Assembly (NCBI RefSeq): GCF_056712565.1
Contig: NZ_CM160072.1
Strand: one strand, 5' to 3'
DNA length: 64,000 bases
A program made the position numbers. Of the stretch, positions 9,327-15,300 are shown piece after piece. Positions within the stretch are counted from its first letter, which is position 1. Each line of letters begins with the position of its first letter.

Positions 9327-12300
9327 TTATACATATCACTCTAAAATGTTTTTTCAATGTTACCCAAAGCGCGATTCTTTGCTAATATGTTCGATAACGA
9401 ACATTTATGAACTTTAACGAAAGTGAATGAGGGCAGCATGGAAACCAAAGATCTGATTGTGATAGGTGGCGGCATCAATGGTGCTGGTATCGCGGCAGAC
9501 GCCGCTGGACGCGGTTTATCCGTGCTGATGCTGGAGGCGCAGGATCTCGCTTGCGCGACCTCTTCCGCCAGTTCAAAACTCATTCACGGTGGCCTGCGCT
9601 ACCTTGAGCACTATGAATTCCGACTGGTCAGCGAGGCGCTGGCTGAACGTGAAGTGCTACTGAAAATGGCCCCGCATATCGCCTTCCCGATGCGTTTTCG
9701 CCTGCCGCATCGTCCGCATCTACGCCCGGCGTGGATGATTCGCATTGGTCTGTTTATGTACGATCATCTGGGTAAGCGCACCAGCCTGCCGGGATCAACC
9801 GGTTTGCGTTTTGGCGCAAACTCAGTGTTAAAACCGGAAATTAAGCGCGGATTCGAATATTCTGACTGTTGGGTAGACGACGCCCGTCTGGTACTCGCCA
9901 ACGCCCAGATGGTGGTGCGTAAAGGCGGTGAAGTGCTTACTCGTACTCGTGCCACGTCTGCTCGCCGCGAAAACGGCCTGTGGATTGTGGAGGCGGAAGA
10001 TATCGATACCGGCAAAAAATATACATGGCAGGCGCGCGGCCTGGTTAATGCTACCGGCCCGTGGGTGAAACAATTTTTCGACGACGGGATGCATCTGCCT
10101 TCGCCTTATGGCATTCGCCTGATCAAAGGCAGCCATATTGTGGTGCCGCGTGTGCATACCCAGAAGCAAGCCTACATTCTGCAAAACGAAGATAAACGTA
10201 TTGTCTTCGTGATCCCGTGGATGGACGAGTTTTCCATCATCGGCACCACCGATGTGGAATACAAAGGCGATCCAAAAGCAGTGAAGATTGAAGAGAGTGA
10301 AATCAATTACCTGTTGAAAGTGTATAACACGCACTTTAAAAAGCAGTTAAGCCGGGACGATATCATCTGGACCTACTCCGGCGTGCGTCCGCTATGTGAT
10401 GATGAGTCCGACTCGCCACAGGCCATTACCCGTGATTACACCCTTGATATCCATGATGAAGACGGCAAAGCCCCGCTGCTGTCGGTATTCGGCGGTAAGC
10501 TGACCACCTACCGCAAACTGGCGGAGCACGCGCTGGAAAAACTGACGCCATATTATCAGGGCATTGGTCCGGCGTGGACGAAAGAGAGCGTGCTGCCGGG
10601 TGGTGCCATTGAAGGCGACCGTGACGATTACGCCGCCCGCCTGCGCCGCCGTTACCCGTTCCTGACCGAATCGCTGGCACGTCACTACGCGCGCACTTAC
10701 GGCAGCAACAGCGAACTGTTGCTCGGCAATGCAGGGGCGATAAGCGACCTCGGTGAAAATTTCGGTCATGAGTTCTACGAAGCGGAGCTGAAATATCTGG
10801 TCGACCACGAATGGGTCCGCCGCGCCGACGATGCCCTGTGGCGTCGCACGAAACAAGGCATGTGGCTAAATGCGGATCAACAATCTCGTGTGAGTCAGTG
10901 GCTGATGGAATATACGCAGCAGAGGTTGTCGCTGGCGTCGTAAGGATGATGCCCGGTTGCGAAGTGCAACCGGGCTATTTGAATTCCTTAGACTATTCAT
11001 TGTAAATAATTGAATAACGGCCCCAGAGCTAAAATCGCCAAACTTAAGCACGTTACCCAATCGCCCCACTTCTTCCTATGGCTTCTATTTTTGCTACGCC
11101 ACTGGCAATAATATCCCAACGCAAAACCAAGCTGGGCACTAATCGGGCCGACAAAATCAGTCCACGGCTGCGGCCAAAAAGGGGAAAAATTCAGGGGAAG
11201 CCAGACAAATGTCAGAAAGAAATTTCGGATATTTTCCAGCAACGCTGATTTCTCTGGAGAAATATAAAGAATGAAATTCGAGAGAATTAACCAGAAATAG
11301 ACCGGAGAAAAGACCAGCCAGCAATGTAGCCTGTTTTTTAATTCAGGAGGCGTTCTGCGGGAGAATTGCCAACCGATGCCACCCATTACACTGAAAAAAA
11401 GTGCATATTCAACCAATAACTCAAGTTGTAATTCCTGAAGAGAAATACGCACAACCAGGAGCGGAAAGGAGAATATTATTTCCGCCAGAAAAGTTAACGT
11501 GAATATAAGTACGGCTAAGGCAATAACCGTCGGCCATACCAATAATGGTACGATAACAAAACCGAGAATTACAGGGGGAATATAAAGCCGGAATTTAATC
11601 ATTTTTATTTTCCTGGTGATTCGGATGATGCGTCATACATCGCGCATAAACACTCATCAATCATCCAGTCGTCTTCCCAGATCTGATACTGTGTGCCCTG
11701 TTCGGGCTACTTAAGCGGGTTCTCAATCGCCTGCCGCGCGCGTTCTTTCAGGATGGATTGATTGTTGAAGGCCCAGGCATTGATTTGGGCGGTAATGGCT
11801 TTATCGATATCGTCCTGGTTATCTCTGATATAACCGTCACGATACGTATTCAATAAACAGGCAAGAGACGCTGCCGACCAAAATCCGGGAACTGAAATAA
11901 TGGCATCAAGCAATGGCGAAAGAGCGATATCGGCACGGAAAAACATTTCCAGCTTGTACTGTAATTCGACAGCCTCATCCCCGGATACCCAATCAGTCAT
12001 ATACTGGCAAGCAAATTGCTGCAATATTTCCCGTTCATCCTCACGCCAGTTTTCTTTACTGGCAAGGTTTATACGCCGTAGAGAAAATACTTCGTGAATA
12101 TTGTCAAATTGCCCCTGCGCAACAAACTCCAGTAAACGAGGCAGAAAATAACGAACCTCATCGCTGTTTTGCGGATCAGGTCCTGGACTACTATTCCAGG
12201 CATTGATTAAGGAATAAGGAATCGCTCGCAACGATGTATTCCGTAATGCTTTTTGTTCCTGTTGACTCAGACAATATTCACAACAAACCACAAATTGCTT

Positions 12301-15300
12301 CGGCGCCGGATAACGACGAAAAATATGATATATCTGCTCAATTAATGCCTGCATGGCAGGAGTGGGGGGCATAATTACCCCCTCGCCCGCTGATCGCGTG
12401 TAAAGGGTTGATAGACAAAACGAGCATTCGCCGCATTCAGGCGAATAATGGCACTACGAGAGAGGGAAAAGCTGGGCCGAATGCAATAATTACAGTCCCA
12501 ACAGCTTTCCTCTGTGCAATTTTCCACTGAGTAATGACGCGCGTAGAGTTTCAGTTCAGCCTGCTTATCGCGAAATCCGCGTAAACTGTTATCGTTTTGA
12601 AATTGCCAGGCTTCTTTAAACACTTGAAAGATATAAACATCCTCAATCCAGGCGTCACATTTTTTAAGCGGGCGCTTTGCTATGATCACCCGCTCATCCG
12701 GGTTGAGCATCGCCGTAAATTGTACGGTGAAGTCATTTGTTGTGTTCAGATCACATTGAACATCTGGTACATCACTGATATAGAGGGCAAATCCAAAGTC
12801 AGCACCACAGGCACAAAGACGGCTAATGGTGGCGGTATCGAGGGAAAATCCCGGCCATACATTGCTGGACGTTAAACCAATATTTAATGTGACATCGTAT
12901 CGAGATAATCCCTCAAGACCGGCAGCACCGGCGAACTTTTCCCCTTCATCCAGGACCTGGTTAATGAGTTGCTGAACAATGCCTTCATCCCAGTATGTTG
13001 ATTTGCAGTGGGCAATCGTAATATCCACGCCAGTGAATGGATCAGTACCGGAGAAGTTTGCAAATAACGTATCAACTAACTCCATTTTTATTATCCGGCT
13101 TAATGCAACATTTTATTCATCGGCACATAACCTACATTTTCTACCAGGTTTTGCCCCTGTAGAATTAAAAATATTTTTTATTTTACATTCTGTTCATCCC
13201 TATTATTGCATTTTATTTTGCGGTGATGGCTAAACCGATTCGGTACTGGCTCAAAAATTACTGATATTCCACTCGCAATATAGCCAGTGCATTATAACGA
13301 CCTGCCGCAGGCACTTTTCCAGTTGTACTAACAGGTAAAGTCAGGAAAGTAACATCAGCAGTTTGCGCAGAAGCCGTCTGGTTTTCCACCAATCTGAATG
13401 GAACGCCTACTGATGTTGCCAGAGCATTTAAATCTACGGAGTTTTGCTGACTATCCATAATCATAATACCAACATCAGGATTATCTTGTGCCTGAATAAT
13501 ACTTTGTTTCCCATTGGTATCACGTGTAGCTGAAATGTTACCGTCGAATACCAACGTCATTACCGCATCTGTATCTTTATTCGTACAATTAATCGGAATA
13601 GTGGTTGCTACAGGAGTAACACCAGCGGGCTTCGCTCCGGCACCAGCCCGGCTCAATTCACTGGCCCACACATCCGGCATATTAACAGTAAAACTCGTAC
13701 CCTCATTAATTGTGCAACCTTGCGGAACCTGAATATCCAGGTTGCTGATCCAGGCATTAAATAATGGTACTGGCCCATGTTCCGTTTGCCGCTGACTGGC
13801 ATACAATGAAACTAAAAGTACATTATTCAGAGAGATATCAGAGATAATCTTTTTATCCAATTTAATTTTAATATAGCCCTCTGTTCCTGAAGACCAATTT
13901 GATGGTTTACTTCTATCCGTTGGATAATTAGTACTATAATTATAAAATGGTACTGTTTTATCTGTCTGTGTCCCATTTTTATTATAGAGTTTAACATGTG
14001 TAGAAATTGATATTTCATGCGTCACTGGAACAAATATATCACTCCCCTGTTGAATACCAGATGTACCAGATGGATCAATACCTGACACTCCGCTAAAATA
14101 TACCTCATAATTGCTAATGGAATTACAATAAGCCTTATACAGACCAATTTTCCAGTTTTTTTCGGGCAGAATAGTACCTGGTATATTATTATTTATATCT
14201 GAAATAATCGTTGTGCCAAAATTATAATAAAAAACAGCCGGTGTGGTATTGTTTTCTGGAGATCCAGGATAGCAAAACTCACGATCCCGGCCCATTTCAG
14301 CATAGGCTACAACATGGTAACCCAAGAATAAAAAGATTATAAAAATAACTTTCAGCTTATATCCGGTATAAGTAATCATATTATTTCCTTTTACTAATCC
14401 GTTTTAACTTGTAAACCTGACACATCCATCTGCAACAGATTCATCTTTACTTTCCATGCAGGTAAAACATTATTATAAACATCCAATGTCTGCCATGCTA
14501 TTTCACAAACCCCTTGCGATTTACACCATGATTGTTGGCGATGGCTAAATGGTGCGACCATACCACCATCTATAACTTTACCATCAACATGTAGGTTATA
14601 GAGTGTCACATATCTGGGGCCTGGATTATAAACGGTAACAATTTCATTTTTTCGTGCCCAGCGTAATTTCTGATATGACATATTCGGGTCTTCAGACAAA
14701 TTTGATGGCCGATAGAATATTTTCATACGATTGCGGACTGCTATTTGCAATTGATTATCAGTTTTGACTGAATGACTATTTTCCAACGTTGGTAATGCTG
14801 CAACATTCAGTATAAATAAACTTTCCCGGTCGGCAGATAAACTGCCACCAACACGATTAATTCTTATTTTTGTATTTTTGTCAGGCTTCAAAACAAACAG
14901 TGGCGGAGTTGCGATAAATACCGTTTCAGAATATGAGGGCAAAGATTCAACCGTTCCCGTCAACTGACGAGCATCATCAGGGGAGACAGCAACCTTGACT
15001 AACATATCTCTGTCTGAAGTGTTTTTGAGTTCAACAGATATTGAGGACTGATTTTCCGGATACGCAAAACGCGTTCCACCGATCACTAAGCCTGCTTGTG
15101 CTGTAGAGAATAAAAGGGAAAATAATACTATGACTACCTTAATCATAGGTGACAATAAACGATACTGACGCATTTGCATCCCCTGGTTGGACATTATTTT
15201 TTAATGCTTTGTAAGCCGCAAAAAATGCAATATATTATCAACTGATGATGTAAGTGAAAAACCCATGCTTTTAACATCATTACTAATACTGCCTTTGTTC

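Follow-up and report, generated by a model that had tools for sequence, protein, structure and literature searches.

What are the three genes that lie between glpD and a fimbrial operon in the stretch of DNA analyzed here, where did they come from, and to which system do they belong? The stretch, referred to below as the window, comprises 64,000 nucleotides (nt) of contig NZ_CM160072.1 (RefSeq assembly GCF_056712565.1), and the segment of it that was queried is a 100% match to Escherichia coli HS13-1. Our open reading frame (ORF) calls agreed with those of an initial annotation of the window, which had placed three minus-strand ORFs of 236, 221, and 201 amino acids (aa), here called A, B, and C, in this interval and which had also stated, correctly, that strain K-12 has yzgL alone at this place, which in K-12 is the glpD-glgP gap. 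By comparison with other genomes, we have shown that A, B, and C make up the downstream part of an operon, full-length yzgL-A-B-C, that is old, has been inherited vertically, and has junctions of 0 to 30 nt; that the auf fimbrial operon replaced the first, PstS-like gene of this operon in the lineage of the window; and that a recent nonsense mutation then removed 34 conserved residues of B.

This history reverses the one first proposed, in which the three genes were a module inserted beside acquired DNA: the genes are ancestral at the site, the PstS-like gene that heads their operon is conserved at glgP-glpD in several genera, and auf is the newcomer. Approximately 40% of complete E. coli genomes have A, B, and C, and all three are annotated as hypothetical.

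The operon before and after the loss of its first gene

The full set of genes is seen in E. coli ECO2, where the glgP-glpD gap contains four genes, which encode a 489-aa PstS-like protein with a membrane domain (PstS-TM), A, a B protein of 255 aa, and C, and where A starts 14 nt downstream of the PstS-TM gene. This PstS-A junction is present in 1,764 of the 5,426 complete E. coli genomes; the auf-A junction is found in 554 of the same set. Megablast homology between the window and PstS-type loci stops at position 13171, and a 72-nt remnant of the PstS-TM gene (positions 13100 to 13171, minus strand), which megablast and alignment identify as its last 23 codons and stop codon, still sits between A and aufG. 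The yzgL gene of K-12 corresponds to the first 73 residues of the PstS-TM protein, which is therefore full-length YzgL, and ~65 nt from the 3' end of a C-type gene also remain in K-12, which is thus a deletion derivative.

The fimbrial genes that now adjoin A are annotated in RefSeq as the Auf chaperone-usher fimbrial operon, aufA to aufG (13258 to 20412, minus strand; aufG, 13258 to 14379). We accept this identification because the glpD..glgP region is listed as the auf carrier in extraintestinal pathogenic E. coli (PMC12928451) and because aufG is c4207 in CFT073 (PMC6727828). In at least one recent genome comparison, the range given for the "auf operon" is 9.4 kb, which is long enough to take in A, B, and C as well (PMC12928451). 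At the end of the homology to PstS-type loci there is an AT-rich palindrome (TGTAGAATTAAAAATATTTTTTATTTTACA; 13158 to 13187), which may mark the breakpoint of the auf replacement. Within the fimbrial operon, the minor-subunit gene at the aufE position (15139 to 15653) is annotated as frameshifted; the Auf operon itself may be defective in this strain.

Translational coupling and the truncated allele of B

Gene A (12375 to 13085), gene B, and gene C (10997 to 11602) are all transcribed from the minus strand. The initial annotation described A and B as translationally coupled, and at the A-B junction (12370 to 12385, minus strand) we did observe a GAGGGGG Shine-Dalgarno sequence, the TAA stop codon of A, a spacer of 2 nt (TT), and the ATG of B. 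A second coupling had been overlooked. The B ORF as present in the window (11707 to 12372, minus strand, 221 aa) ends at a premature TAG (11707 to 11709) in codon 222, which is CAG in other strains, so that the last 34 residues are removed; the native gene extends from 11605 to 12372 on the minus strand and encodes 255 aa. At the B-C junction (11600 to 11614, minus strand), an AGGA Shine-Dalgarno sequence, the native TAA of B (11605 to 11607), and, 2 nt further on, the ATG of C are found. Because the intact 255-aa form of B stops 2 nt ahead of the C start codon, all three genes are coupled in their native form. Judged from the stop-start gaps, which are 2 nt for A-B and for native B-C and 14 nt for PstS-A in ECO2, and from the internal Shine-Dalgarno sequences, A, B, and C, together with yzgL, appear to form a single translationally coupled operon. 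The view that these are three genuine genes stands, in that they are real, co-directional, and under selection; however, the 221-aa product assigned to B is that of a truncated allele.

RefSeq annotates the B gene of this strain as a pseudogene on account of an "internal stop"; we likewise regard it as a pseudogene or truncated allele. The exact 61-mer that carries the TAG is present in 11 of the 558 genomes that have this segment. The TAG allele belongs to a small clone that includes human isolates and avian pathogenic E. coli O2:K1:H7, and it could be used as a lineage marker.

Where glpD and C converge, their 3' ends are separated by a GC-rich hairpin (10951 to 10975) that has a T-run on the glpD side and is likely to be a terminator. 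No terminator-like hairpin was seen between aufG and A, and we count this as support for the view that, in this strain, the three genes are probably expressed by read-through from auf.

Constraint and divergence

Between the window and ECO2, the ratio of nonsynonymous to synonymous divergence (dN/dS) was 0.26 for A, 0.16 for B, and 0.23 for C, at synonymous divergences (dS) of 0.21, 0.31, and 0.09, respectively; the corresponding values for glpD were 0.05 and 0.18. Vertical descent fits these data, because the dS values of the three genes bracket that of glpD. With dN/dS at about 0.2, the genes are constrained, but less so than housekeeping genes. For two auf-type strains that have no PstS gene, dN/dS was 0.18 for A, 0.20 for B, and 0.49 for C. 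The GC content of A, B, and C is 42 to 46%, that of glpD is 55%, and that of aufG is 39%; on these values, the composition of the three genes is distinct from that of both the core genome and auf.

When HS13-1 was compared with DS566-2 across window positions 9438 to 14379, dS rose from 0.03 in glpD to 0.05 in C, 0.11 in B, 0.24 in A, and 0.35 in aufG. This steep gradient suggests that recombination has exchanged old auf alleles and that A, B, and C have hitch-hiked along with them.

Searches for known relatives

The initial annotation could not place A, B, or C in a known family, and our searches led to the same result. There was no significant match for any of the three in Pfam, which was searched with single sequences and with every alignment member, in NCBIfam, or in the PDB, which was searched by sequence and by profile. 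The PADLOC 2.0 hidden Markov models (HMMs) gave no family for A, B, or C at an E value of ≤1, and PHROGs gave a single marginal match, of A to a family of unknown function (E value, 8e-4). Rfam and repeat finding yielded nothing useful. In phage and plasmid collections, there were no true matches for A or for the close relatives of B; their sole "plasmid" match, NZ_OL790696.1, is a 4.8-Mb E. coli chromosome misfiled in PLSDB. A literature search for yzgL, YbbD, and the CFT073 tags c4204 to c4206 returned nothing on these genes, and the portion of the supplements of the TosR transcriptome sequencing (RNA-seq) paper that was accessible does not list A, B, or C.

The PstS-TM protein and its relationship to C

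The PstS-TM protein consists of a polytopic N-terminal domain of ~200 aa and a periplasmic PstS-like domain, with matches to PBP_like_2 (1e-29), TIGR02136 (6e-35), and solved PstS structures (1e-18). The possibility that the locus is a PstS-type ATP-binding cassette (ABC) phosphate transporter operon was considered and rejected: only PstS-TM, A, B, and C are present, with no ABC or BPD_transp domain.

C is strongly hydrophobic over its whole length. It reads as polytopic, as had been proposed: six to seven segments can be counted by eye from the sequence, although a simple hydropathy scan with a strict threshold found only three. Its close homologues are confined to the genus Escherichia. When the C family was aligned with the N-terminal membrane domain of YzgL by use of hhalign, a probability of 95.4% and an E value of 2e-8 were obtained over 158 columns, and the two have in common the motif P-[VI]-[GS]-[SA]-Q-L-x-F-x-L-G-Y. 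In addition, a C-like protein from Superficieibacter matched both C (BLASTP E value, 2e-23) and the N termini of YzgL (PstS-TM) proteins (E value, 3e-9). Based on the profile match, the shared motif, and this bridging protein, we conclude that C and the membrane domain of YzgL are paralogues, C being the free-standing one. C therefore resembles YzgL, with which A, B, and C share an operon in most strains, in being homologous to its ~200-aa membrane domain; it differs in having no PstS domain, and in the window the yzgL gene itself is gone except for 72 nt. These results do not agree with the initial picture of a soluble pair with a membrane partner, since C is paralogous to the membrane domain that the missing first gene encoded and since a relative, C', pairs with a PstS-like lipoprotein where A and B are absent.

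Gene A

A has no hydrophobic segment and is predicted to be cytoplasmic. Its AlphaFold2 model (predicted local distance difference test [pLDDT] score, 83.6; predicted template modeling score, 0.83) consists of two alpha/beta lobes, and the N-terminal and C-terminal lobes can be aligned with each other (hhalign E value, 4.8e-6). On this model, A is a tandem duplication of a ferredoxin-like (DUF4279-like) domain of ~110 aa. Foldseek searches of AFDB50 returned two-domain DUF4279 proteins from many phyla, at E values of 1e-13 to 1e-5; several DUF4279 proteins, with E values of 4e-8 to 2e-5, had a probability of 1.00 and template modeling scores of 0.4 to 0.6.

The likeness to DUF4279 (PF14106) is thus seen in the alpha/beta ferredoxin-like form of each lobe of A and in the top AFDB50 matches outside its own family; moreover, the DUF4279 label is carried by a fragment from Salmonella salamae with 41% identity to A, and one A homologue has a faint precomputed match to PF14106. 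However, A from the window has no match to the DUF4279 HMM even at an E value of ≤10, 14 members of its family have none at ≤0.1, and in A two units are fused in tandem and interrupted by a Cys-rich insertion. DUF4279 has been described as the FdL-Imm5 immunity family of polymorphic toxin systems (PMC9424270) and as the predicted immunity partner of the Rhs-Ntox33 toxin of Salmonella pathogenicity island 19 (PMC13304343), whereas there is no polymorphic toxin gene beside A in any locus examined.

The cysteine patterns reported for A (C190/C195/C198/C201, that is, C-x4-C-x2-C-x2-C) and for B (C30/C31/C34) are both present. In A, the cluster is an insertion in the second repeat, in a region with a pLDDT of <50, and it is missing from two members of the family, P0020 and P0184. 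Metal binding by A, which had been suggested from this cluster, is consequently not a property of the family.

The cytidine/nucleic acid deaminase fold (APOBEC, CDA, DddB, and TadA) was among the known systems used for comparison. A zinc-dependent deaminase was rejected, as the A family has neither H/C-x-E nor P-C-x-x-C in its invariant or near-invariant columns. No catalytic-looking motif is kept by any of the three proteins, and G, P, W, F, and L account for most of the invariant residues.

In some genomes, A carries the RefSeq name "YbbD family protein." The basis for comparison is that residues 7 to 49 of A match positions 6 to 48 of the YbbD model (NF007301/PRK09781; Pfam YbbD_head) with an E value of 2e-6. 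However, this match reaches 27.4 bits over 43 residues, compared with a curated cutoff of 373 bits; the YbbD homologues are lipoproteins of ~139 aa that match model positions 44 to 181 and have no BLAST similarity to A; and the YbbD-like proteins of Salmonella carry an L-T-A-C lipobox, in contrast to A with its lack of a hydrophobic segment. A was rejected as a true YbbD homologue on these grounds, namely, the sub-cutoff match of 43 residues, the absent BLAST similarity, and the different part of the model concerned. Because the true YbbD-like proteins match the rest of the model, we infer that the label on A is an artifact; NF007301 (PRK09781), considered here together with RefSeq WP_000424560.1, was probably built on a chimeric ORF, which would have spread the wrong name to A in some genomes.

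Gene B

B has an all-alpha helical-repeat fold and, like A, no hydrophobic segment. C30 and C34 (C-x3-C) are invariant, the relatives from Deinococcus included. The C-terminal helix, D-E-C-L-C-A-M, is conserved and is missing from the truncated product; the C-x-C in this tail is conserved in the Enterobacteriaceae only. B is comparable to HEAT/TOG/ENTH-type alpha-helical repeat proteins, with no single family prominent and identities of 3 to 13%, but it differs from them in the invariant C-x3-C and in an F-L-P-R-L-L-E motif, which are common to unnamed ~250-aa proteins of Deinococcus and other phyla. The idea that the tail of B is a fossil of the PstS 3' end was dropped, since D-E-C-L-C-A-M is kept in B paralogues that have neither a PstS nor a C neighbor. 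The DNA held in common with the PstS-lipoprotein-C' loci is limited to the final ~40 nt ahead of C.

Distribution and alternative gene combinations

The initial annotation had raised the question of whether the three genes ever co-occur outside this locus. In essence they do not: the searches located the A-B-C trio in Escherichia and Superficieibacter, in each case at the orthologous glgP-glpD site and nowhere else. In the latter genus, the site contains PstS-TM, A1, a superfamily 1 (SF1) helicase, A2, B, a C-like gene, and a gene for a 142-aa protein; the order A-B-C is kept, with gaps of 1 to 2 nt and identities of 56%, 49%, and 31%, respectively. Other hosts have shorter combinations at glgP-glpD. 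Salmonella carries PstS-TM, A, and a YbbD-like lipoprotein gene, and Pseudocitrobacter carries PstS-TM, A, and B. PstS-TM also stands directly before A at this site on two further contigs, one of which carries PstS-TM and A and nothing more.

Within Escherichia, E. coli 1444 has PstS-TM, B, and C, with A shrunk to a 28-codon mini-ORF (MDIINIFLNAANALFIYQPFMHDQRARG; locus L012, 6470 to 6580), which arose by an internal deletion of A and retains the start and stop of A and the Shine-Dalgarno sequence of B. It looks as though A-B coupling were being kept in this strain. E. coli 23CRST026 has PstS-TM, a 330-aa PstS-like lipoprotein gene, and C', which is 70% identical to C and coupled across 2 nt, but has no A or B; in Escherichia whittamii, PstS-TM is accompanied by a B gene with a frameshift and by C. 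A metagenome contig carries two B paralogues alone, at an unrelated locus. A scan of 100,044 species genomes with the B profile found 4 loci.

The helicase gene that lies between the two A paralogues in Superficieibacter sp. 1612_C1 (L014, 8741 to 11440; L020) encodes an 899-aa SF1 protein of the IGHMBP2 family, which is MkoA-like at 3e-44 in PADLOC and has a DUF2726 domain at its C terminus. It looks like a defense-type gene that landed in the same slot.

Possible functions of the operon

The anatomy and history of the operon are well supported; its mechanism is not. The best explanation as a whole, to which we would give slightly less than an even chance, is that A, B, and C are the remainder of an old yzgL operon that has been beheaded and that their products belong to a membrane-associated, nonenzymatic complex. 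Because no catalytic-looking motif has been kept, A, B, and C are taken to be binding or scaffold proteins. Translational coupling would ensure that they are made in a fixed ratio; C, like the paralogous YzgL domain, would form the membrane part; and A, with its double ferredoxin-like fold, and B, with its helical repeat and Cys pair, would be the cytoplasmic partners of C. In the original unit, the tethered PstS domain probably bound a phosphate-like anion in the periplasm, an event that would have been coupled to the cytoplasmic proteins. In the strain analyzed here, where the binding domain is lost and B is damaged, the unit would at best be partly functional. The tight operon structure across genera and the paralogy of C and YzgL support the idea of a complex.

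Several findings weigh against this explanation. There is no ATPase, permease, or output domain in the operon, and purifying selection on A and B persists in strains that have no PstS gene. Moreover, the genes are modular: A with PstS-TM but without B or C, A-B without C, B-C without A, and C' without A or B all exist, two B paralogues are found by themselves in an unrelated locus, and the remote relatives of B are solitary plasmid genes in Deinococcus, Streptomyces, Chondrinema, and Asticcacaulis. Given this modularity, it can be argued that each protein is able to work alone.

The main rival explanation, which we regard as possible but doubtful, is that the genes are an orphan-immunity array, in which A, B, and perhaps C would each neutralize a polymorphic toxin of the Rhs, contact-dependent inhibition (CDI), or type VI secretion system (T6SS) kind that is delivered by a competing bacterium. 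The proteins would have been gathered in a variable slot by yzgL and would act by tight, one-to-one toxin binding. The best non-self structural matches of A, as outlined above, are to proteins of a described immunity family; however, A of the window is without a match to the HMM of that family, and the ferredoxin-like fold, being very common, does not single out immunity proteins. The slot after A is variable, in that it may be empty or may contain B with or without C or a gene for a YbbD-like lipoprotein, and tandem paralogues occur (A1/A2 and B/B'), but the fixed A-B-C order and the 2-nt coupling in two genera are better suited to one expression unit than to separate cassettes.

With regard to toxins, the K-12 homologue ybbD comes after ylbH, an Rhs C-terminal fragment, and the remote relatives of B are found among small hypothetical plasmid genes, one of them 3 kb from a gene for a "restriction endonuclease fold toxin." Nevertheless, none of the loci examined had a toxin gene next to A, B, or C. 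When 1.84 billion representative proteins were searched exhaustively by use of HMMER, only 28 relatives of A, mostly fragments, were obtained, and those whose context was checked were all at the glgP-glpD locus, none of them paired with a toxin. The lack of conserved catalytic motifs and the GC content of 42 to 46%, compared with 55% in the core genome, would be in keeping with orphan immunity, whereas the dS values, which in the window-ECO2 comparison match those of flanking core genes, and dN/dS values that give no sign of diversifying selection would not. The initial idea of a defense or toxin-immunity module is supported only indirectly, by the DUF4279-like fold of A; no toxin gene, PADLOC match, or mobile context was found.

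It is also conceivable, but in our estimation unlikely, that YzgL-A-B-C is an undescribed envelope system of a few genera of Enterobacteriaceae, in which a tethered PstS-like sensor and its free paralogous membrane subunit, C, would either pass signals to A and B or have these two proteins as guards. If true, such a reading would tie an "immunity-type" fold to solute sensing instead of toxin neutralization.

We consider it quite improbable that the locus is in functionless decay, that is, that after the loss of the PstS gene the three ORFs are drifting to pseudogenes, the stop codon in B being the first visible step. B is indeed truncated in the window, and the first gene, and probably with it the operon's own promoter, has been lost. 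Fragmentary or frameshifted copies are numerous in Shigella, E. whittamii, and others, the whole unit is deleted in K-12 with no known cost, and the dN/dS of C is relaxed to 0.49 among auf-type strains. However, the dN/dS values of A and B remain at ~0.2 between auf-type strains with 11 to 24% synonymous differences, clone D i14 and DS566-2 have kept each of the three ORFs intact, and the nonsense allele of B is limited to the 11 genomes mentioned above. Pure decay of A and B is therefore unlikely; decay does describe the allele of B in the window.

An antiphage defense or toxin-antitoxin module, in which A and B would be the sensors of infection and C a membrane effector of cell death or arrest, is very improbable, for although it would suit the layout of a soluble pair with a small membrane protein, the presence of the genes in some strains and not others, and the MkoA-like helicase between two A copies in Superficieibacter, which shows that defense-type genes can enter the locus, A, B, and C have no PADLOC match and were not found in phage genomes, the locus is chromosomal, syntenic across genera, and free of an integrase, tRNA, or other mobility marks, C is paralogous to the membrane domain of a solute-binding protein and also occurs beside a PstS-like lipoprotein without A or B, and none of the three has a nuclease, NTPase, TIR, Sir2, or similar effector domain.

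Other features of the window

Elsewhere in the window, a frameshift is annotated in rtcR (5693 to 7290), whose product activates the rtcBA RNA-repair operon. An internal stop interrupts the gene at the yhhZ position (38503 to 40422), which is annotated as coding for TssD (Hcp), the tube protein of the T6SS, and which is followed by yrhA, yrhD, which has an internal stop too, and yrhB; we take this region to be an orphan T6SS effector/immunity cluster that has decayed here. Between livJ and rpoH there is an accessory island (56445 to 60754), presumably absent from K-12, with a mannose-family phosphotransferase system (IIA to IID), a phosphoglycerate dehydrogenase-like gene, and a second dapA-like gene.

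Conclusions

A-B-C is a real, fairly widespread, and ordinary uncharacterized accessory operon, partly decayed in this strain, for which no new mechanism has been demonstrated. The "YbbD family" label that A carries in some genomes is probably wrong. The strains described here provide a natural allelic series, comprising the intact four-gene operon and its auf-beheaded, B-truncated, A-deleted, C-only, and K-12-null forms, and the search for the function of A, B, and C should pair them with the PstS-like gene yzgL and not with the auf fimbriae.

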